Below the pieces are notes generated by a model. It made no database searches, was not told the DNA's origin, and saw nothing but the letters and a program-made list of their open reading frames with translations. From NCBI GenBank assembly GCA_000934665.2, contig KZ539380.1, forward strand, positions 1-64,000: DNA of 64,000 nucleotides, in the 5' to 3' direction. Shown here one piece after another: positions 4,999-28,200 of the stretch. This DNA is from Catajapyx aquilonaris (taxonomy: Eukaryota). Within the stretch, counting starts at the first letter, position 1, and the number at the start of each line of letters is the position of its first letter. Made by a program: the position numbers and the translations under genes.

Positions 4999-5638
4999 GG
5001 TGGCCTGGGCTCGCGGAGGATGGTCCCCCTCACATGTCAGGGGTCAGCCCAGACTTTAATACGCCCACATAAACACACCACAGGAAGGAGAAGCTCGGAT
5101 CCTCTTTCCCCCCCTTCAGATAATTCAACTTCGCATTTCTGCCACTTGGACGCGTAAACACGCCATCTGGCGAGAAACAAGTGCACGGTTCGTGCATGTG
5201 TGCAGATGTGTATAATGTACAGTACATAGAGCTATTTCACGATTAAATTGAATGCTTAAAATAATACCACTCGGCTAAATTATATTCATTCCAGATATTA
5301 TCGCCTAATTATTGTGTACATCCGGTTGACTAATATTAGCTGTTAGGTAGTAGTTATTTATAGCGTAACAAGAATCATTAGCTACATCATCTCCTGGCCA
5401 TTGCATGCCCTGCAGAGTGCAAGGTGCGCCTTTCAGTGGAAATAAATAAACCGTCACCAGAACAATTCAGCACATTAGCACAGTGTATCCTGCAGAAATG
5501 ATCCAGAATTATCGCACACCCGCCTCATAATATATTAATCCACAAAAGTCTATCCCAGAACAACAGCTACGCGATGTAGCTAGGCAAGGTGATTTGGGTC
5601 GGTGCGTCTTCCGGTTGTTCCGGAGAAGTGTGGCCACG
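4999..5638. promoter_or_regulatory. Bidirectional promoter region VPS9D1 / RPL7
   Basis: Divergent start codons only 640 nt apart. ETS-like CTTCCGG/TTCCGG motifs and a short pyrimidine run at about 5607-5623 just upstream of the RPL7 ATG. Confidence 0.6.
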
Positions 5639-8600
5639 ATGGCGGACGTAGAGTGAGTATCTCGTGCCCCTTCCCCGTCGGAATCCCCCTGAATCCCATG
5701 CCCCTCTGGTCCATCCGCCCAGCCGGACCCACCGCTGGGGGAATAGGGAAGGAGACGCGTCCACAGTGGCAGGCGGATCCGGGGTGGCGCAGTGGGCAGG
5801 ACACACCGGCGAGGAAGGCATACCTTTCCGCCTCCCTACCGGCCAACCCTTCCCTCTCCTCTGCCATGGGCCCTGACATGCCCTTCTCTTGTTGCCCCGC
5901 AGGAAGAAGGCAGCCGCACCCGCAGCGTCATCCCCACCTGCGGATGGAGCGCCCAAGAAGAAGAAGTCGGCCAAGAAGCTTCCAGCCGTACCGGAGTCCG
6001 TACTCAAGAGGAGGAGGAAGATCCGGGAGTTTAAGGCCAAGAGGAAGGCCTCGGTCGCCAAGGTACAGTACATCTCACTCCCAGAGGGAGGTATGGCCGT
6101 TTGGGAAGGGGGACCCAAATCAGTTGCTCATCAGCAATTATCTCGATGCTTACCCGTGTCTGGTGGCCTGGCCCCGGGCCGGCTCTTGTTGAGAATTAAT
6201 TTTTTTTAGTGAGGATATTCCTGACCTTTCCTCACCAGGTGCCAAAAGTTAATAATTGGCCTTGGGGCGGAATGCCCCGGAGTGATTTTGCGAGTGGTGA
6301 CCGCGCTTATCCGACCTCCTCTTGTCCGTGTCTGGTGGTCTGGCCCCGGGGCAGGTCGTGTCAAATTTTTCTTGGGAGTGAGGAGGGTTTGTTTGCAATT
6401 TGTAATTAATTTGACAAATTCAAAGCCGAGTATATTTTTTTGTATTAACACCATTTATTTTTAAATTGTATGGGAATACTTTCTTAGAGTTAATAATAAT
6501 AATATAATTATAATAATGGATACCCCGTGATAGGCCCCTTGGGCCTCTTAGGGGATCATCTTTTAATAGACCGACTTTAATCATCTGCCTGTAATGTGAT
6601 GGATTTTGATAGTGGGAGGAAACGGGAGAACCCCGAGAAAACCCACGCGAACATGGAGAGAACCCATCGATGTTTTCACCCAATGATATCGTAATTTCAT
6701 GCTTCATGTGAGAGTCTTAATGATGAGTCTTATGCTGCAAACTGAATCGTGATGTGTACTTATGTACCTTGGAGAACTGAGAGATTCTCACATGTGTGCT
6801 TTCCACATGGCATTGTTTCAAAGTCTACAGTGATGCCACCAAAACATAATGTGAGAACATGCTTATGATACACATAAGTATCCTCCGTCCGACCCGGGGA
6901 TCGAACTCGGGACCTTAGAGGTGGAAGGCTACTCGGCCACCGTGTCGCCCTTACTTTCTTAGAGTTAAGGAGAACTACTGTTGAAAAAAGGATGCATGGA
7001 TTTCCTGTTGTTATTACTCCATTAATATACTCGTACTGTCGACTATCAGAATTTTTGTTGGATTTATGGAACAAAATGGACATTGTTCAGTTAGTTCCAC
7101 TTGCAGCAAATGTCAGGAAGTGACGACATGTACGGACACCTCATATATTTATTACCAAAATGATACATAGGGAGAACATGAATGAACCCCAAACATATTT
7201 GACAAATGGTTCCACTAGTCTCATAAATTACACCCAGGGTCACATTTTAGACTCCCAGCATAACATAACTGTTGCAAAAATAATTATGCAGGTATACATA
7301 TATCGCAAATATTTAGAACCAAGTGACACAGAAAAAATTTAAATATATGAGCAAGCTATACAAACTTACACATAGTCAAAAGGGTGCATCCTCAACAAGA
7401 TCTGCCCTGGGGCCAGACCACCAGATGCGGACAAGAAGAGGTCGGAGAGTAGTGAGAAAATGGCACTCACAAAATCACTCCATGTAGTCTGCCCTGGGGC
7501 CAATTCAATTCAGGGACCTGGTATGGAAAGTTCAGATCCCTGGTCATTCCTTAAAAAATTCCCAACAAGATCTGCCCCGGGGCCAGACCACCAGGCACGA
7601 ACAAAAAGAGGTCGGATAAGCACAGGCACCACCCACAAAATCACTCCAGGGACAGTCCGTCCCAGTGCCAATTAACTTTTGGTACCTGGTGAGGGTAGGG
7701 CAGGAACCTCTTCGCTCCAAAAAAATCTATCTCAACACAATCTTCCCCGGGGCCAGGCCATCAGACGTGGACAAGTGGACCTCATTTTGATGGCAGCCCA
7801 ACTTTTGCTGCTAGAGGAACTGGAAAGGGGTCAATTCCAATTAAACTAACATCATGGCCTAACTTGGGTTGCATGTGTTTGAGTTGGTGTTAATGATTGC
7901 TGGAGGCACGACATTGTAACTCTTGTTACTGTTAGACAAGGTGCGTAGAGGATTAGGTGAGCTCGCATCGCGCTACGGGTGATTGCCTTCCTGTCTGCCG
8001 CAACAAGCTTCTGGGGATGGCCACTATCGATGGAGCTGCCGTCAGCAGACTTTCCATTGGCACGGCTCTTAACGTAAAACAAGGCCTTTGGATACATATG
8101 TCCTTCCTCCAATCCTACAAAACAACAAACCACGGTGTGCAACAAACAAATAAGGCACATCCAGCCCGACACTGCCGCAAAAGCAGCAGGGAGTAGATAG
8201 TCTGCTGATGGCAGCGCCACTGATAGTGGCCATCTCCAGAAGCTATTTGCGGCAGACAGGAAGGCAATCACCCGATAGCATGGAGATCAGGCCAACCGAG
8301 CTCACCTAATCCTTTATACACCTTGCTGTTAGAATAGAATGTGACAGGAAGGGAATTACATCACCCAGAAGCAAAATATACTGGGGGCTCCTGTGTCACA
8401 GGGTGAGGGAGTAAGGGAATAGAACAAGCATAATAAGATGAAATTCGGAAAGGCTTAAGGGGGCGCATTAGTAAAAAAATATGGTAACAATCGGTAACAA
8501 TGCCAGCCCTTGGCGACGACCTAAACAAACTCGCGTTTGCATGGACAGCATATGGGGATTCGACATGTCCACGCTTCGGCGGCCTTACGGCCACAAAAAT

Positions 8601-11600
8601 GGAGCAAAGGACGCAAAAATTACACCAAAAAATAGGACATGATCTGGCGCAGGGCACCTTCGGCGTCATTTTACCATTTTCGGCCTAGAAGTGACCTTTT
8701 CATCGGGTTGAAGTGAAAGAAAAATGGCGTTCCCGAAAAGCCCATTTGAATAACATGGCGGCAGGAACGCGACAAATTCGGGAACGCTTCGGCGTCCGTA
8801 TGCCCACAATTTTAATGCAATTATATCGAGTATGGTACCATAGTAAAGGCCAAACCTTTCCGCAGGGCACCTTCGGCGTGATTTTTCCGATTAACCGTCC
8901 GTTTCGCCACAAAAAATAAAATTCCCTCAAAAATGCGCCTACCGTATTTTTACTCATGCGCCCCCTTAATGGAGCAGCCTTTAATTTTGTTAAGTTCCAA
9001 TTAAAAATTAATATATTGAATTTATGCCAACCTCTCTCCTGTCATCTTCCAGACCAGGAAAGAGAAGTTAAGGAAAAAGCGAATCCTGATCAAGCGTGCA
9101 GAGAAGTATGTGAAGGAGTACCGCCAAAAGGAGCGTGACCAGATCCGCTTGGCACGCATGGCTCGAAACAAGGGCAACTTCTATGTGCCACCAGAACCCA
9201 AGCTCGCCTTTGTGATGCGTATTCGGGGGTAAGGCTACCGGTAATAGTACTTTGCATCTAAGGTGCCTAATGATTCTTCCAATTTCAGTATCAACCAGGT
9301 TCATCCAAAGGTGCGTAAGGTACTGCAGCTGTTCCGCCTGCGACAGATCAACAATGGAGTGTTTATCAAGCTGAACAAGGCAAGTATGCCATGTTTTCAC
9401 CCAATGATATTGTAATTTCATGCTTCATGTGAGAGTCTTAATGATGAGTCTTATGCTGCAAACTGAATCGTGATGTGTACTTATGTACCTTGGAGAACTG
9501 AGAGATTCTCACATGTGTGCTTTCCACACGGCATTGTTTCAAAGTCTACAGTGATGCCACCAAAACATAATGTGAGAACATGCTTATGACATGCAAAGAT
9601 CCAGTTGGTTGGTATCAACAGTTCAAAAAGAATTGTCCCGTCGCGTCGAGTGGGCAGCCACGCGTCAGGATGAAAGGAACCAGTTAACTGGTCTTTTTGA
9701 ACTGTTGATACCACATTGGTGCATCACCATGAGGTAAGAGTGAAAATTTCATTATACAATGAAGTACAAGCAGTTGTATAGGAGGTCTAAATATTATAGT
9801 TTGTGAATCCGTGAAACAGTCATAAAAATTAGTGGGAAATAGAGGGATTTTTGTTTTGTAACAATGGGAGATGGTCCCTATTTTTGGAGCCTTGTATTGT
9901 TCACTGAAACTGGAAGGATATCACACTGAAACCACTGGTGTGCAATTGACGTCATTTACATGAGTTTTGGTGAACAATATGTGACAAAATAGGATGAGAA
10001 GGAGAATGACATCCTTTCTGGTTCATATCATATATTGGAAAATATCTTTTGCAGATTGACAGTATTTTGGTTTCTGCATCTTGTTTGCATAGTAATAAGA
10101 CAGGCTGCAGTGGTCCTAAATGCTGGCCCTTCATCTTAAGTTGCGTCGAAATAGCCAATCCATACTGGATCACCTGCTTGTATGTTCTCTCCCCTTCCCC
10201 ATTGCATGCGACAAGCTAAAAGATATGTGCACCTGTCTGATGGGGGAAGTCATTCCCTGGCTAACTATACAGTATCTTGAGTCATGTTCATTCTACGTTA
10301 TGTTATTTGGGCAAACGCTGATTGCATTCAATGGATTATAATTATAACGTATATTAACTCTGGATATATGTTACAGGCAACAATCAACATGCTGCGCATT
10401 GCCCAGCCGTATGTGACTTGGGGCTATCCTAACCTGAAGAGTGTGAGGGAGCTTATCTACAAGCGTGGGTTTGTCAAGACTGGCCACCGCAGGATTCCAC
10501 TTTCATCCAATGACCTGATATCCAAGAAGCTTGGTAAGAAACGTTTAATTCAGGGGAGAGGGGGTTTTTTAAGGCCCCAAAATTTTAGGTGTCAATTACA
10601 GGGTGAGTTTAATCCTTCAGGAAGTTGAGCTCTGAAAATCAGTGATTAAACATGATTTCAAATATGCAGAAATTATTTGTGAATTTCATGTGGAAGCAAA
10701 TGCCGTTTGGTTTAATTTGGATTAGGATACCTGTAAAGTTAGGCAAGCTTCCTGAATTTTGTTCCTTGTTTTTATCCAACTACAGTATAAAGTAGTAACT
10801 AAGAATTTTTCAATAAAAATCAGGCTTGACTGATGACTTGTGGAGCTCCGTGATGAAATTTTGATATGCACACTGACATGCCTTGATGGCGCACTGCATC
10901 TCGGAGACCTGAGAGCTTCTTAGTACATCAAGCTTCACTTACCTTGACCATGTTGTTTGTTGGAATGTAACGGTTAAATTTTCTGCAGGCAAGTTCGGCC
11001 TCATTTGTGTGGAGGACTTGGTTCATGAGATCTTCACTGTTGGACCCAACTTTAAGTACGCCAGCAACTACCTCTGGCCATTCAAGGTAATTTTCTCTTT
11101 TAAAAAAAATGATAACCCAACAAGTCCATGGAGCTGGCAGAATGTTACGTGCTGACTAACTCCTCCCACTTGTTGGAGAGTAATGTCATTGCGTGAATTC
11201 CTTCCTGCTCTATGTGTCAGGAAGGCCCAAGCGCATTGGCTACACTTGCATTGATTCAGGGGATGACCTGCAGCATAAAATTATTGCACAAGTATTGACA
11301 ACTAGACATCCTAATGCCAAGCCAAATGTTATGGAAGTGTGGCAGAGATCAGTTTCCAAAAATTAAATTTGTGCAACCGCTGCTGCTCTCTCACAGTAGT
11401 GGTCAATGGAATGTTCAGATTTTTACTACTGCTATTATTGCTTAGAAAGGAATCTCGAGTTTGCAACTTTTTCAGTATTCTTGCCTGCTTTTGTTTCACT
11501 TGTTGACTTGTAACATGTTATTAACCCTGGAACCGTGGCGTGGGCTCTTTTCGGGCCCCAAAGGAATTAAAATGCATTAAAATTACTATTACAATGAACT

Positions 11601-12056
11601 GTTTGCCATTTAAAAAAAGTATATAACAGGAATACAGGATACGAGACGGCTAGGCTCAAACTAGTCGTCGCTGGCTACGCCATTTATGGGATTATGCCAT
11701 GATGTTATGTATGTATCTAACAGGAAGTGCATGTTTATTTTGAATTAGCGATCATTTTAGGCATTGTTCAAAGAATGATTGTATAGCCAATACATTGAAA
11801 AGTATTTATATAAAAATTAATAAAAATTAAAATATGGTGCGGGGTCCTAAAAGACCCCACGGCATGGTTCCATGGTTAACAGTTTTTATGCATAAGTTGA
11901 TGCTTGTTGGAATTTGCTCAATTGTAATGCATATTTCATATTCAGCTGAACACTCCAACTGGTGGTTGGCGCAAGAAGACCAACCATTACGTGGAGGGCG
12001 GGGACTTCGGCAACCGTGAAGAATACATCAACAACCTACTCCGCCGCATGGTGTAA
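5639..12056 (+). CDS. RPL7: 60S ribosomal protein L7 (uL30), 268 aa
   Basis: Exons 5639-5652, 5903-6062, 9053-9228, 9289-9379, 10377-10533, 10989-11086, 11946-12056 (807 nt). Motifs [109 protein letters not shown]. Intron 4 is GC-AG. AATAAA at 12090-12095. Confidence 0.97.
6494..6951 (-). mobile_element. tRNA-derived SINE with 17-bp TSD, interrupted by a snoRNA cassette
   Basis: Minus strand: A box TGGCCGAGTAG, B box GAGTTCGATCC, core TCTCCATGTTCGCGTGGGTTTTCTCGGGGTTCTCCCGTTTCCTCCCAC, and an AT-rich (TTA)n-like tail. Direct repeat TACTTTCTTAGAGTTAA at 6477-6493 and 6952-6968. Confidence 0.85.
6705..6794 (+). ncRNA. C/D-box snoRNA, SNORD55/U55-like (duplicate copy inside the SINE)
   Basis: Box C ATGATGA 6720-6726, D' CTGA, C' GTGATGT, guide ACCTTGGAGA, box D CTGA 6777-6780, terminal stem CATGTGAGAGTCT/AGATTCTCACATG. 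The snoRNA body is identical to the intron-4 copy. Confidence 0.8.
7937..8325. mobile_element. hAT-type MITE with long (~110-bp) inverted arms
   Basis: Ends CAAGGTG...CACCTTG. Arms GGATTAGGTGAGCTCG...GCAGACT / AGTCTGC...CGAGCTCACCTAATCC. Perfect 8-bp TSD CTGTTAGA at 7929-7936 and 8326-8333. Confidence 0.85.
8459..8965. mobile_element. TTAA-targeting MITE (Kolobok-like, GG...CC termini)
   Basis: TTAA on both flanks (8455-8458, 8966-8969). TIR GGGGGCGCAT(T/G)AGTAAAAA. Internal ~210-bp direct duplication (CGCAGGGCACCTTCGGCGT near 8649 and 8861). Superfamily inferred from TSD and termini only. Confidence 0.75.
9426..9515 (+). ncRNA. C/D-box snoRNA, SNORD55/U55-like (RPL7 intron 4, probable source copy)
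   Basis: Box C ATGATGA 9441-9447, D', C', box D CTGA 9498-9501, 13-bp terminal stem. Guide ACCTTGGAGA is antisense to the conserved 28S segment GGUCUCCAAGGU. Also carries the ATGCTGCA element recalled from vertebrate U55. Confidence 0.85.
9610..9713. mobile_element. Small MITE-like inverted repeat (22-bp perfect TIR)
   Basis: TGGTATCAACAGTTCAAAAAGA (9610-9631) and its reverse complement (9692-9713). No clear TSD. Confidence 0.6.
10843..10918 (+). ncRNA. C/D-box snoRNA in RPL7 intron 5 (divergent U55-like paralog)
   Basis: Box C GTGATGA 10850-10856, D' CTGA 10873-10876, C' TTGATGG, guide ATCTCGGAGA, box D CTGA 10909-10912, stem GAGCTC/GAGCTT. Ends about 70 nt upstream of the 3' splice site, the usual intronic position. 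Confidence 0.75.
11525..11875. mobile_element. piggyBac-like MITE in RPL7 intron 6
   Basis: TTAA TSD (11521-11524, 11876-11879). About 35-bp imperfect TIR CC(C/A)TGGAACC(G/A)TG(G/C)CGTGGG(C/G)TCTTTT. Confidence 0.8.
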
Positions 12057-12124
12057 TATCTTTGCAGGAGAGCTGGAAGCTAAACAGCCAATAAAACACA
12101 TGTCCCATACTTGATAACATGTTT

Positions 12125-14550
12125 TTAATCCTCCTCTTCACCTTCCCCCTCTTCCTCCTCCTCACTCTCTTCGTCCCGTTCCAGCATGTTATACATGACA
12201 GACTGATCATCATCCACAGAGGCATAAACAACCGTTTTTGCTACAGTACTAGCTAGACGACCATGCCTTGACATTTCAATTGTGCCCAGTGGTTGATGAT
12301 CATCACGGCAGATAATTATGTAGTCAGCATGTCCCAAGCGAGGGTCCTGCTTGTATGCCAAAAAGTCCCCTCCAAACTTGATCCCAGGCGTGAGGTATAA
12401 ATGTTGTTCCCACAAGTCACAGAATACACGGAAACGAAGTCGCTCCCTGGAGGTTGAAGGGAAGGTCCACTCAGGAGGCTCCAATTGGTATGGATTGGCC
12501 CATGGGTACTCTGAAAGAGTAAGGGAATTTTTTGAAGTATTGGGAAGAAGTTCAAACAAGTGAAATTGCACAGGTTGGTGGTTCACAAAACATTTGACTT
12601 TTCATCATGAAAGAATGCTGTTATTACAATGACAAGTTCGACTTTAGACAAGTGGCAGCACATTATTTTGCAGGTGTTTCGAGTCCATTCAACAAAAGAA
12701 CTATTTGAGGTCACGTTCAGTCCTGCCTCCACCCGTCTCTTCCTTCCTCTCGTCCCCAAATCGCTTTGCAAGCATACTACTGCATATGCTTGGAAAACAC
12801 AGCTGGTGTGACATCAGATCGTTCCTTTGTTTAACAGACTACACATGTCTCGGCCCCTACCAACATAATATGTCTGTGATAAAAATTTCAAAATCATTTG
12901 GAATGATAAAACTTGAACATACCCAAGCGAAAATCCACGAATGCATTCTCTCTGATGAGCTGGTCTGTCTTTTTCATCTCTACTTCCAAAATGGAAGTTA
13001 CGTCCAAATCTGCGGCTTCTGAACTTGTTGCTTCATCTTCCTGGGTACCTATTTAGATCAGAAATTATTATCCCACCATCTACTTCCAAGTGTCCCCTGA
13101 GCCAACTGACCTCCCTCCACAATTTTCTTTCTCCTTTTCTTTCTTTTCCCTTCCCTAATTTTTTCCATCATTCCTTGCAGCTGAGTCTTCCTTTTCTCTC
13201 TGTGCATGTCAATCTGTTGCTGAACGTTCCTATCCTGCTCTTCTTTTGCTTTTTGCTGCATTTCTTCTGAGGGTGCCTTCAGTAAGGAAGGTTGATGTAC
13301 CAGGCGAGCTATTCCCTTCAACTTGAGAAGATACGCCTCTTCTGGCATCAGCAGGAGTGGGAGGGCAGCCCTAGAGCTATGTTGGTCATGGACTGGTCCC
13401 ATTGGGCTGCCTATGATGCGATATTTCTTACGGAGAGTGTTTTTGTCTACAAATAAAGGTACGAAATTGACCACTTATCGTGTGAAGAGAAAGCAAAAAA
13501 AACAAAACAACAACAACAACAACAACAACAAATTTCAAAAGAATGCCCCAAAGAGGATGCCTGAATTAAAATAGCATCATCCCTTGGCCTATGCTAAGAA
13601 CAAAATACAGGAAGTCCCTGGGTTAGGAATTACCAGACTTACGGCAACCTGTACTAACGAATGGGCTCCCAAGGCAATATATGATTATCCCTCCACTATC
13701 AATCACTTCTGTGTATGTAGACCAACACCAAATTCTACCTAAATACTGTAATTCGGAAGCTACTTTCTTCTGCACATGTAAACAAACACACATGACTTAA
13801 GACGTAAGTGGTTCTTTGGGGTAGCATCTTTACACTAGCTGTTATTATTATTCTTACCGTATATGAAAAGTTAATCAGGCGTCTGAGTTACATACTAATC
13901 CAACTCACAGACATTCTGAGGAACAACCATGTTCGTGTAGACTGGTACTTCTTGTACATCCATTTTGGCTATGAGGCGTTACATGTGGCAAAAGCAGCAA
14001 ATAAGTTTTAATTATGCAACAATTTGTTGTATAGGGTATATTGGGGTATATCCTGTACTAACTGTAGAATGTACTACTATCTAACATCCCTACTTGACTG
14101 GTGCCAGGCCCTGCAAATATTTCCTATGCCACCAAAGCTAACAGAATCAAAACATAATAATTGCCAAAAAGTGATGCCCGCTCAATTTCAGAAGTTACGT
14201 AGGCCTACTCTGTTTTAGTCTGATACTTTGAACAGGCTGAGAGATCGCCTTGCATGATGCAAATGGGGAGGTACTGGCCACACACACCAATTTAATTCCA
14301 AATATCATTTGGCTGCAATGTGCTTGAACGACTGTTGCAATATGCATGGATGAAATGCATGGCACTGTTTCGGCCCCAAAAAATTCTTGTTGCACAGCAC
14401 AACGCTGCATTAAATAGCGAAAAGAAGACAAGTGTTACCAGTAGCGTTCCAAACCAGCGGCATCCCATGAGAGACATGAACGTCGATCATGTTTCTGGCC
14501 TTGAAAGGCATGCCTTCCCCGAGCTTTGCTGCACTCACAGTAGCCGCCAT
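12125..14550 (-). CDS. TSEN34: tRNA-splicing endonuclease catalytic subunit Sen34, 319 aa
   Basis: Exons 14439-14550, 13111-13446, 12923-13048, 12125-12510 (960 nt, GT-AG). N-terminus ...MIDVHVSHGMPLVWNATDKNTLRKKYRIIG...LPLLLMPEEA. Catalytic region KFGGDFLAY...GHADY...GRLASTVAKT (Tyr/His/Lys triad). In-frame alternative start at 14490. Confidence 0.92.
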
Positions 14551-25246: not shown

Positions 25247-28200
25247 NATATAGCTTCCCTTTTTGAGGGATATCATAGCCATCGTCGCCGGAAGTCCGAC
25301 AGACACCACCATTAGAAATTAAAGTGGACGGAAATTGTATGTGGAGAAGGAGCATTATTTTTTTCATCATGCACTCCACTGGATTGAGCAACTTGCGACT
25401 CATTCATGTATGAATGAATGAATGAATTACATCTGACCCTGGTGTACAGTTGCCTTACGAGTACTTTTGTGACACTGTGAGCCGCAGAATCATGAAAGAG
25501 TCGCTACCTCAGCATAGACAACGAACGTTGATGTAAATTATTTTAAAATATGTGGGTAACTAACTCTGTTATGTCGCTGATTATTATCTTCGTCATCGGC
25601 CGACTACAGTGTGAAACTTTCACCTCTACTCGATATCAAAGCAATGAAAACTTATGCAAGTGCTCATGAAGGTCATAGTGACCCGAATCAAGAACGGTTC
25701 GTGCCAGCGTCATTCATCATGAGTAGTTTTTTAAACTTCCGGCCCGCATATGCGAAACGTGAATTCGAGACTTTTAAAATAAGGGAAAAAAAGTCGTGCT
25801 TGGTATTACCGCGTTGAATTACGTGCCTTGTTAGTTTCATTAAAAAGAATTTTTTTTAATGAAGAATGTACTGCGCATTGATGGTGCACTGTCCAAGTTC
25901 CCAGTTGAAGGGGAAGAAAGGATGGCCAGGAGTTACGGATTGTTTTCCTGGCAACCAGTGTAAAAAGAAGCAAGACGTTGGAATAAACAATCAGGCTCTC
26001 ATTCAGATGTGATTGCTGCCTCTCTTTAAACTCGTTTCTAGAGTAAACATTTAAACACCTTTTTAAAAACACTTTAATGGTCTTGTGCAGTGCAATACCC
26101 TTGGTATGTCTATCCACACATTTATACTGACGTTACCTTACTTCTCCCTGCACAGTGAGTAGTCAAGCATAATAATTGCCCCTTTCTTCTACCGAATTAA
26201 ACGGATTCCATATAAACCCTCCTAGATGCGGCCTTGAACAAGGCCCCAGAACATTTTAGCTTATTTTTAGATCGTTCGAAGTGGCCAGGGGGATTGCAAG
26301 TATTCGAAAGTTCAGTAATGAGTTTTTACATTAATATTTGGAACCTAATTATTAAAGGCTTACAAAAATGTTGGCTGATTAGTAGCTAATGCATCATTGC
26401 TGTAAATCCAATAGGTCCATTGATATTTGCTGGTAACATTGTTTGAACGCTACAGTGAGACACATTNNNNNNNNNNNNNNNNNNNNNNNNNNNNNNNNNN
26501 NNNNNNNNNNNNNNNNNNNNNNNNNNNNNNNNNNNNNNNNNNNNNNNNNNNNNNNNNNNNNNNNNNNNNNNNNNNNNNNNNNNNNNNNNNNNNNNNNNNN
26601 NNNNNNNNNNNNNNNNNNNNNNNNNNNNNNNNNNNNNNNNNNNNNNNNNNNNNNNNNNNNNNNNNNNNNNNNNNNNNNNNNNNNNNNNNNNNNNNNNNNN
26701 NNNNNNNNNNNNNNNNNNNNNNNNNGGGGGGGGGGGATAATTTACTCGGCATTTGAAGGTATAATTTTTGCGTAAGAATGACTATAGAGATGTGAACAGG
26801 CACGATTAATGGTAGTCAAACTCATTCTTTCTGCCTTCCCATTCCATCTCTCCCTCCACGCCTTTCCATATCTCTCCAATTTATTCCCACAGAGAGTGTG
26901 CCAATAACTTGCAAAATTTGTGTTCAAAAAAGAATGAAACACCGGTGAATTCATCATCACCACCACCATCAGTAGTAGCTCAGTAATACTAGTAAGGTGT
27001 CCCGACCAAAAAGGCCACCATGAAAGTTTAAAAAAAAAAACTTCCCTTTCCATATGGTGAATTGGAAGTTCAAACATTCCCCTTCTAATAGGTAAGCGAA
27101 CATTTCAAATATTCTTGGCTGGAGCTTTTTCTCACTTTCTCTCAAAATAGTAATTTTTAAAACCCGAGGGAAAAACACCTGAGGACCCAAGTGAGGCCCG
27201 ATATAATACTGTATATAGGAAGGTAATTTGGGGACCACTTTTGGTATATTCTTTAGTCAGACCTTGTTTCGCATGATACAAGGTAAGTCAGTACATGTCA
27301 ATTTTCACCGGGAACCATATCATAGTTAAAAAGTTATTGAGGAATGTTTGGGTTTCCATTCCAGAGATTCACCCTGTACAAAACTGAACTGAGCTGTACA
27401 GTTTTATCCTCGACGATTTCGACGATCACTAGTGCACAGGTGCCACTCTTCGCATTGCCACTTTACTAACAAATAAGTGGCCTAAATTGACATTCCATCC
27501 AATGACAATATGACATTCAGAAATAAGGCTTGGGCTTAATCGCACTCTGCAATTCATTGCAATCTAATGGCAAAGCTTAGGTTATAGATTTTTCAGTGCC
27601 ACCTTATTTCGAATTTCATATATTTCTCATGTACTGTAGGCCCTACGTTACTTTGTACAGTACTCTTATTAGGTAGTATATGCACTTGATCGTTTAATCG
27701 TGCTTTGATAACTCACCTGCATTTAGACCAGGACCCGACTGGAGTGACTCGACTCCCACAAATTATTCCAACCGGGATAGGCCATAATTTTATTGTGAGC
27801 CGAAATTTGCACCATCAAGAGGTTAATTACGTAGGTAACCACATCTTACTATAATGCCAGAAGTTCATAGCAGGCAAGAAAAATGCAAATAGCCAAATTA
27901 TGGGCCTGGTCTGATTTGATAGTGCTTAGCAGTATTAAATTCTTTTTGTACTAAATTGAAAATACTGATAAAATTACTGCTCATGTGTTACTCACCTAGT
28001 AAGGAGTACGCGAGGAACCATACTCCAAAAGCCAGGTATGTGGATTCGGTATTTACTGTACATGCTTTGGTGCTGTGATTACCTCCTGAGTATCCATTTT
28101 CGAGAGGCGCCACATTTACAGCCCTGGAAGAAACGACGGGTAGTTTGCATAAGAAATTAGGTAGTTGCGCAAAGTACTCTCTAGAAGAGGCGGAAGCAGG

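Follow-up and report, generated by a model that had tools for sequence, protein, structure and literature searches.

The RPL7 gene in the window (the whole 64-kb stretch of DNA that was analysed) contained a 199-nt copy of part of its own intron 4, set into a SINE in intron 2. This cassette is probably an end-joining patch at a break in a resident SINE, copied from RPL7 intron 4, and as such a nascent intragenic (cis) duplication of a snoRNA. The RPL7 gene model comprised seven coding exons with an uninterrupted translation of 268 codons, and exon 3 matched the Pfam family Ribosomal_L30_N with an E-value of 2.4e-18. Intron 2 (6063..9052, plus strand; 2,990 nt, GT-AG) held the SINE and the new snoRNA copy. 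Intron 4 (9380..10376, plus strand; 997 nt, GC-AG) held the parental copy. Both snoRNA copies were thus located on the plus strand in introns of one RPL7 model, which is the arrangement that defines a cis duplication, with the source 2.7 kb downstream of the cassette in the same transcription unit. Based on the gene model and the strand, the original prediction was confirmed in two respects, namely the intron-to-intron duplication inside RPL7, from intron 4 to intron 2, and the orientation of the cassette, which is sense relative to RPL7 but antisense relative to the SINE.

The inserted cassette (6670..6868, plus strand) corresponded to bases 12-210 of intron 4. In a pairwise comparison it formed a direct repeat of 199 nt with the source segment (9391..9589, plus strand), whose first base follows the GC donor at 9380 by 11 nt. 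The identity was 99% (197/199) and dropped to background immediately beyond the edges of cassette and source on both sides. Two differences were present, 6690 C/T and 6808 T/C, and both were located outside the snoRNA (6711-6788) and outside its external stem (6705-6717 / 6782-6794), which leaves the two mature snoRNAs with the same sequence. The near-identical intron copy with two substitutions outside the snoRNA body had been predicted in this form. Selection cannot be read from the positions of the two substitutions, since snoRNA and stem make up about 45% of the cassette and the chance of both falling outside is about 0.3. Cassette and source were the only young duplicate of the window, and the only other pair with at least 90% identity was an 81-nt palindrome arm. 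Judged by two differences in 199 nt, the copy is apparently young.

By its motifs, the cassette carries what appears to be a SNORD39/55-type C/D-box snoRNA in complete form, external stem included. The assignment is based on a sub-threshold match to SNORD39/55 in combination with the boxes and the stem. The snoRNA copy with its 13-bp external stem (6705..6794, plus strand) comprised box C, ATGATGA (6720-6726; RUGAUGA), box D' (6744-6747) and box D, CTGA (6777-6780; CUGA), with 61 nt from box C to box D. The stem, 6705-6717 paired with 6782-6794, joined the box C and box D ends, and the fold reached -28.6 kcal/mol with a z-score of -2.56, equalled by 5 of 200 shuffles. A scan for box C and box D on either strand of positions 5500-12200 yielded only three candidates, the cassette snoRNA among them. 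The parental C/D snoRNA (9432..9509, plus strand) was likewise recognised as SNORD39/55-like by a sub-threshold Rfam match and the box scan.

The Rfam family RF00157, SNORD39/55 (clan CL00057), matched positions 6711-6788 with 25.7 bits and an E-value of 0.025; the gathering threshold of 35 was not reached, and in the whole window no family reached its gathering threshold. The match was carried by the boxes and by both guide elements, which both fitted the SNORD39/55 consensus. The D guide, ACCTTGGAGA, was identical to the consensus of RF00157, RF00358 and RF01506, and the D' guide fitted the consensus of RF00157 only. A metagenome scan for both guides together gave no matches. A looser scan for loci sharing box C, box D and the D guide detected at least 116 of them, showing that the D guide is widespread; among the 116 loci listed, the D' guide was present in none within one mismatch and in three within two mismatches. 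Rfam assigned 7 of 20 sampled loci to snoZ101 or Afu_294 above threshold, and the other 13 to no family above threshold. The predicted intact C/D snoRNA cassette was upheld with respect to boxes, guides and 13-bp stem, but its Rfam score was under the threshold. Human SNORD55 is linked to 28S-Cm2791 in a passage of PMC8677024. Paralogy of the snoRNA in RPL7 intron 5 with the cassette snoRNA was not established, as the two resembled each other only in the boxes, around the D guide and where the stem begins.

The SINE was bounded by a target-site duplication of 17 bp, the left copy at 6477..6493 and the right copy at 6952..6968, identical at 17 of 17 positions. Its 3' part (6494..6669, minus strand) comprised an A/T-rich simple-repeat tail at the low-coordinate end (6494-6519) and the body, and its 5' part (6869..6951, minus strand) was a tRNA-like head with an A-box-like TGGCCGAGTAG and a B-box-like GTTCGATCC. 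Copy number and junctions were judged from contigs of public sequencing runs, X1-X3 and X5. The SINE family was very abundant, with 1,540-1,930 matching contigs per run and summed contig depths of 10^4 to about 5x10^5, compared to about 20-38 on unique flanks. Over the 3' part the summed depth was 10^4-10^5, and in the 5' part the very high family depth covered 6871-6930. Many copies, the target-site duplication and the A/T-rich tail identify the element as a SINE. A second copy elsewhere in the 64-kb window was not present, and a literature search for the body motif, meant to name the superfamily, returned unrelated primer matches only.

ARAGORN with default settings found no tRNA in the SINE, nor did Rfam at E-values up to 10. 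Relaxed ARAGORN (-ps80) alone gave a degenerate tRNA-like call at 6886-6950 on the minus strand. The 5' end of the element, 6931-6951, departed from the family consensus, with loose contig ends at 6930, and the A-box region likewise deviated from it. Of the predicted full-length tRNA-SINE with its 17-bp target-site duplication, the duplication stood; the tRNA label is based on the A- and B-box motifs and was not matched by a default tRNA call, and full length is qualified by the deviating 5' end. In 6537-6667, only two listed differences from the family majority were found (6568 and 6585), suggesting that the SINE copy is also young. On the sense strand of the SINE, a TTTT run was located about 25 nt into the cassette, ahead of the anti-snoRNA part. 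Its role as a Pol III stop was weakened by a further TTTT in the native SINE body at 6641-6638. The proposal of a Pol III-driven chimera, able to produce anti-snoRNA RNA or to make the snoRNA mobile, was not supported, given a single chimera, the early TTTT and the deviating A-box region.

The junctions were compared with canonical copies of the SINE, which read ...CCCATCGA, then AACTCTATC (variants of 6-11 nt), then CACATAAG... across the insertion site. The middle element, with AACTCTATC as its consensus, is a linker that occupies the site of the cassette, between 6670 and 6871. It was defined in X1-X3 from 15 listed joints, 12 listed strings of intervening letters and loose contig ends at 6670 and 6871. 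Because canonical copies carry the linker at this site, about 6-7 nt of the SINE were lost; the count depends on the linker variant of the recipient copy, 6-11 nt among the listed copies. Microhomology at each junction was at most 1 nt, with the first and last A of the cassette assignable equally to the SINE. Contrary to the expectation of a rejoined SINE with 1-2 nt of microhomology, removal of the cassette leaves the element incomplete. Retroposon hallmarks were absent. The 3' end of the cassette, ...GCTTATGA, ran straight into the SINE with no A-rich tail, 6670-6868 was not flanked by a direct repeat, and no duplication was found around the patch. An inverted microhomology at the right junction, CTTATG / CATAAG, was dropped as a candidate, since synthesis primed from it would run the wrong way.

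The two ends of the copied segment are predicted to pair with each other, which is a new observation here. In the MFE and centroid folds, the outer helix of the cassette (6670..6861, plus strand) paired 6670-6679 with 6852-6861 over 10 bp and left a 3' tail of 7 nt (6862-6868). The helix thus began at the first copied base and ended 7 nt short of the last. In the source, the corresponding helix comprised 11 bp (9390-9400 / 9572-9582). Such a helix was present in 172 of 62,824 control segments of the window (0.27%) and in 14 of 4,453 control segments of RPL7 introns, for a statistic that was picked after the fold had been seen. The whole cassette folded no better than shuffled sequences (z -0.79; 46 of 200 equally good). 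The pairing ends hint at an intermediate that was single-stranded and structured, perhaps an intron RNA after trimming. Together with the near-blunt junctions, the helix-bounded ends would be explained by a single-stranded intermediate formed beforehand no less well than by microhomology-primed local DNA copying.

In the preferred explanation, a chromosome break would have hit an antisense SINE copy already resident in RPL7 intron 2, within the variable linker that separates head and body. End joining would have closed the break with a 199-nt patch that represents the first part of RPL7 intron 4. Such a repair would have cost the SINE the missing 6-7 nt, and it would account for the minimal sharing at the junctions and for the lack of A-tail and duplication. 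Every RPL7 pre-mRNA would now contain two snoRNA copies, and the copy in intron 2 would be expected to be processed like the one in intron 4. As the origin of the patch, a structured single-stranded intermediate is slightly favoured over DNA templating. The likeliest intermediate would be the excised intron RNA, which exonucleases would have shortened as far as the foot of the end-pairing helix before its reverse transcription at the break. Hints for RNA are that the segment is wholly intronic, that it starts 11 nt past the donor site and that its ends coincide with the helix foot. These hints do not separate an RNA from a DNA template, as a palindrome past the right end of the source could equally stop a DNA polymerase.

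Local DNA-templated copying is the strongest competitor, a realistic but clearly less probable explanation. From a break or stall in the SINE, a 3' end would have invaded intron 4, copied 199 nt and returned, in the manner of SDSA, MMBIR/FoSTeS or polymerase-theta-type repair, or a displaced ssDNA flap would have been captured. The donor is near, in cis and in direct orientation, and the palindrome, a perfect 22-bp one starting 16-20 nt beyond the right end of the source, could have dislodged the polymerase. However, a single shared nucleotide at each junction offers little microhomology from which to prime 199 nt of synthesis. It would also be a coincidence that the left end lies 11 nt into the intron, and a further one that the helix joining it to the right end begins at this base. 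The orientation of the cassette had been taken to favour a DNA-templated insertion. It was not decisive, because a cDNA or RNA patch at a break can enter either way round; orientation excludes only a template switch during first-strand synthesis of the SINE cDNA.

Improbable, by comparison, is a chimera formed at the insertion of the SINE itself, in which the reverse transcriptase would have switched from the SINE RNA to the RPL7 intron and back, giving SINE and cassette equal ages. The perfect 17-bp target-site duplication would agree with this, as would the youth of the SINE copy, with 6568 and 6585 as the only listed differences in 6537-6667, and an insertion site in the same gene from which the intron RNA originates. 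On the other hand, an RNA antisense to the intron would have to be available for first-strand synthesis, the enzyme would have to switch twice and come back to within about 7 nt of where it had left, and other copies of the chimera were absent.

The extreme repetitiveness of the SINE raises the question of an assembly artefact, in which the cassette would have been mis-joined into the SINE via repeats. The right junction, 6868|6869, was crossed by a 492-nt contig of X3 reaching 32 nt beyond and by a contig of X1 reaching 29 nt beyond, and the contig of X2 ended precisely at 6868, which is what a branch point would produce. None of the contigs listed bridged the left junction, 6669|6670. Since X1-X3 stem from one sample, which may be the source of the assembly, the junction support is not independent. 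In X5, from a second study, only parts of the SINE were detected, in 11 of 30 bins. Against a mis-join, the two copies differed at two sites and both states of position 6808 were present in the sample (T in X1, C in X2 and X3). Depth pointed in the same direction. The cassette was represented by one contig per run with depths of 43.5, 44.8 and 30.1 in X1-X3, and its flanks showed 33.4 and 28.3, 28.4 and 37.8, and 19.7 and 18.2, respectively, which indicates two genomic copies, one of them the parental intron. The nearest run of N was at 25247. With these observations, an artefact is quite improbable.

The same depths answered the question, raised with the original prediction, of whether there is one chimera or a subfamily: the cassette showed about two-copy depth, the SINE halves a summed depth of about 10^5, and there is one chimera and no snoRNA-carrying SINE subfamily. 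A mobile unit, either such a snoRTE-like subfamily or a small DNA transposon with 10/11 terminal inverted repeats and the snoRNA as cargo, is highly improbable, for the imperfect inverted repeat at the cassette ends and the internal promoter motifs of the SINE are outweighed by the two-copy depth, the antisense snoRNA, the early TTTT on the SINE sense strand and the seven bases past the right-hand repeat that were co-copied, so that the unit is not bounded by its repeats. The transposon variant was rejected on the last point and on the presence of two copies only.

Beyond this locus, the break patch raises the tentative and rather doubtful idea that snoRNA genes spread within host genes by an RNA-patch route of their own. 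After splicing, exonucleases would trim the intron to a helix-closed precursor protected by the snoRNP. This stable precursor would stay at the highly transcribed locus, and at a nearby break it would be reverse transcribed and ligated as a patch. If true, the route would explain why paralogues pile up across the introns of one host and arrive with their processing stems, and the cassette would be the first case in which both junctions and both RNA ends are legible. The legible edges also make the general question testable, that is, whether the donor is an RNA processing intermediate and whether such patches are common around highly transcribed snoRNA hosts. The present evidence concerns one event in one sample, and the unusual aspects of the patch are its payload and its landing place.

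Among known systems, the insertions attributed to SD-MMEJ and FoSTeS/MMBIR resemble the cassette in that a repaired break has gained additional sequence from a local template. As a rule they are short or start from evident microhomology, whereas the cassette is 199 nt long and has near-blunt junctions. The platypus snoRTEs, reportedly described by Schmitz and colleagues in 2008, share with the chimera a snoRNA that is physically joined to a retroposon. In them, the snoRNA is said to form the sense 5' module of an element amplified to many copies; in the chimera the snoRNA lies inside the element, antisense and as a single copy.

The snoRTs of types 1-3 (Weber 2006; PMC1687206) start where the mature snoRNA has its 5' end and have an A-rich tail and a 7-19-bp target-site duplication. 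Like them, the cassette brings a snoRNA copy with parental intron sequence into an intron in sense orientation, where it could be processed. Of the three marks given there it showed none, having no A-rich tail, no target-site duplication and a start 50 nt upstream of box C. Closer are class 2 templated insertions, for which the review by Onozawa and Aplan (PMC5110952) lists no target-site duplication, no poly(A), a microdeletion, microhomology or few untemplated bases, and a retained donor. The cassette agrees with these features, with no target-site duplication or poly(A), a microdeletion in the recipient, at most 1 nt of microhomology and a donor that was kept and is intronic. In the human class 2 insertions or TSIPs, donors are distant and the RNA origin was shown experimentally (PMC5110952), whereas the cassette and its donor belong to one transcription unit, 2.7 kb apart, and an RNA origin is hinted at by the segment's position and ends. 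The payload differs as well, being a working-looking snoRNA unit.

For intragenic duplication of intronic snoRNAs, the mechanism was described as 'still enigmatic' (Shao et al.; PMC2653536), because the known paralogues are too old to show junctions. Cis-duplicated snoRNAs are like the present case in that the paralogue keeps its boxes, guides and stem and is found, with unchanged orientation, in a second intron of its host gene. Known cases were deduced from diverged paralogues, while the copy in RPL7 intron 2 is 1% diverged, has legible junctions and forms a non-tandem 199-nt patch in a SINE. With edges that can be read base by base, it provides a fresh, if single, example of the multiplication of a snoRNA gene.

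The + strand of the window encoded a complete RPL7 gene, with seven coding exons and 268 codons in stitched open frames. Exon 3 on its own matched Pfam Ribosomal_L30_N (E 2.4e-18). Five introns were GT-AG, and intron 4 (9380-10376, +) was GC-AG with the donor AAG/GCAAGT. A segment starting 11 nt past this donor site (9391-9589, +) recurred in intron 2 (6063-9052, +) at 6670-6868 (+), the layout and intron numbering given in the original prediction. The two formed a direct repeat of 199 nt, identical at 197/199 bases and differing at 6690 (C/T) and 6808 (T/C). Directly beyond either end, identity fell to background. The repeat was not a piece of a bigger duplication, because self-comparison of the entire 64 kb gave only one other duplicate of ≥90%, an 81-nt palindrome arm. 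Both differences were CpG versus TpG, one each way (6689-6690/9410-9411; 6808-6809/9529-9530), and are consistent with a single CpG-to-TpG change in each copy after the duplication. That both lie outside the snoRNA gives no evidence of selection (chance ~0.3).

The copy, here termed the cassette, was located in a minus-strand tRNA-like SINE (6494-6951) and shared the orientation of RPL7, opposite to that of the SINE. The element was bounded by a perfect 17-bp target site duplication (6477-6493 and 6952-6968). On the minus strand, a head containing motifs similar to A and B boxes was followed by a short linker, then a body and finally an A/T-rich simple-repeat tail. Sequence identity and target site duplication upheld the claim of a young intron 4 copy within a SINE, while corrections were needed elsewhere. 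In the same intron, inverted units of a ~170-bp repeat flanked the SINE (6149-6361 and 7388-7786; arms 76-88% complementary, 1.0-1.4 kb apart), and the stretch between them could be break-prone. A foldback or MITE-like element was present at 7937-8325, with arms of ~80-130 nt and 80-90% complementarity.

Logan contigs from four public sequencing runs were compared with 6380-7080. X1-X3 represent a single sample, possibly that used for the assembly, and X5 belongs to a different study. The SINE halves matched 1,540-1,930 contigs per run with a summed depth of up to ~5x10^5, compared with ~18-38 for the unique flanks. The SINE 5' end with the A-box region (6931-6951, -) was unlike the family consensus given by the loose ends at 6930 and had a depth of only ~2-3x flank. 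It represents a further local scar or else an uncommon variant of the head. The cassette interior was found in one contig per run, at depths of 43.5, 44.8 and 30.1 in X1-X3. This fits two genomic copies, because these contigs also included unique intron 4 flank (261-450 nt). Among the joints listed, the SINE family had ...CCCATCGA, 6-11 letters (consensus AACTCTATC) and CACATAAG... at this site, based on 15 of 39 joints, 12 of 85 strings of intervening letters and loose-end consensuses at 6670 and 6871. Low cassette depth and family copies without the cassette show that it is foreign to the SINE family and that the chimera is unique, which settled the choice between a single chimera and a snoRNA-carrying subfamily. 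Removal of the cassette had been expected to restore the SINE, but ~6-7 nt were missing relative to the family, the exact loss depending on the copy's linker variant. Of the 1-2 nt microhomology described earlier, 1 nt was retained on each side, a single A assignable to either SINE or cassette.

The best reading is that the cassette is a 199-nt patch that sealed a break by end joining. The linker of the SINE in intron 2 would have been broken and then closed with the patch joined in. The opposed orientation had been taken to favour a DNA over an RNA template. It excludes only a template switch in first-strand SINE cDNA synthesis. A patch at a break can go in either way round, so orientation gives DNA no preference over RNA. 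The copied segment could form a helix between its two ends. In the source, 9390-9400 paired with 9572-9582 (11 bp, fold of the intron 4 start), and in the cassette 6670-6679 paired with 6852-6861 (10 bp, shared by the MFE and centroid structures). This outer helix started at the first copied base and stopped 7 nt short of the last. A helix of ≥10 bp was likewise placed in 172 of 62,824 other 199-nt window segments (0.27%) and in 14 of 4,453 RPL7-intron segments; a looser helix definition gave 0.78% of control segments. These controls belong to a test picked after the fold had been seen, and the entire cassette folded no better than shuffles (z -0.79). The end helix thus hints at, without proving, a structured single-stranded intermediate with helix-set ends. 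The most natural candidate would be spliced-out intron 4, trimmed from both ends on its way to the mature snoRNA and then reverse transcribed at the break. Such an intermediate would account for a segment that is wholly intronic and starts 11 nt from the intron 5' end.

DNA-templated copying of the patch is possible and only slightly less probable than an RNA template. The donor is a nearby sequence in cis. A perfect 22-bp palindrome just beyond the right end of the source could have halted a polymerase. This palindrome (9610-9631/9692-9713, within 9606-9715, +/-), which has a 60-nt loop and no second copy in the window, lies ~20 nt past the copied segment in intron 4 and may have fixed the copy's right-hand end. 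On either strand, its Rfam matches of miRNA-precursor type were only weak (27.6 and 26.4 bits, threshold 83).

Placement of the cassette in the SINE by mis-assembly is very unlikely. No contig among those listed bridged the left junction (6669/6670), and X5 contigs covered SINE parts only. However, the right junction (6868/6869) was crossed by a 492-nt X3 contig, which ran 32 nt past it, and by an X1 contig (29 nt past it), and the X2 contig ended precisely at 6868, the behaviour expected of a k-mer graph branch. Moreover, both states of 6808 occurred in the X1-X3 sample, and the closest N was at 25247.

At the gathering threshold, Rfam found no family in the whole window. Under permissive settings, RF00157 (SNORD39/55) matched both copies (25.7 bits, threshold 35, E 0.025), with box C, D' guide, D guide and box D as conserved parts of the alignment. 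A box C-to-box D scan with terminal stem on both strands of 5500-12200 yielded only three candidates: both snoRNA copies and a further one in intron 5. The external stem of the cassette snoRNA comprised 13 bp (6705-6717/6782-6794; fold z -2.56). Its D guide is common to several Rfam families, and a metagenome scan with box C, D guide and box D gave at least 116 loci. At the matched site, seven of 20 sampled loci received an above-threshold call of snoZ101 or Afu_294 and 13 were uncalled. The D' guide was found within one mismatch in none of the 116 metagenome matches listed, and a scan with both guides together gave no match. Across Rfam and these 116 matches, the D' guide matched only the RF00157 consensus. 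The payload was accepted as a probably real C/D snoRNA of the SNORD39/55 type on its boxes, guides, stem and RF00157 match, though its score stayed below the Rfam threshold. Human SNORD55 is linked to 28S-Cm2791 in PMC8677024. On two unrelated eukaryotic metagenome contigs, the D-guide-sharing snoRNA was clustered with snoR14 (L016 and L034) and snoU61 (L016), all above threshold. The intron 5 candidate (10841-10920, +) had a 7-bp terminal stem, with GTGATGA as box C and CTGA as both D' and box D. Its guides were unlike those of the cassette snoRNA, its snoZ101 match was sub-threshold (23.8 bits versus 44) and it ended ~70-80 nt upstream of the intron 5 acceptor (10988).

The idea of a Pol III chimera that mobilises the snoRNA or makes anti-snoRNA RNA found nothing in its support. 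There was one chimera only, and the SINE sense strand had a TTTT run within the cassette, at ~25 nt and ahead of the anti-snoRNA part; the native SINE body also has such a run. The A-box region was off the family consensus with few-fold depth only, and the SINE head gave no tRNA fold at default settings.

External stems have a role in position-independent snoRNA processing. The patch delivered boxes, guides and the full 13-bp stem in sense orientation into an intron of its own highly expressed host gene, and the new snoRNA copy is predicted to have the features needed for processing from RPL7 pre-mRNA. The unusual part is this carriage of a functional-looking snoRNA unit into its own host gene. 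An L1-type snoRNA retroposon was rejected, since the A-rich tail, 7-19-bp duplication and start at the mature 5' end, the hallmarks given by Weber 2006 (PMC1687206), were all missing from the cassette. The cassette shows the defining features of human class 2 templated sequence insertions (PMC5110952), namely no duplication or tail, a recipient microdeletion, microhomology (≤1 nt in the cassette) and a retained donor. With the cassette, an intragenic (cis) duplication of the snoRNA has begun, a process whose mechanism is called 'still enigmatic' in PMC2653536. The cassette follows the known evolutionary pattern of such duplications, to which the RPL7 case adds a young, legible example and a mechanistic hint.
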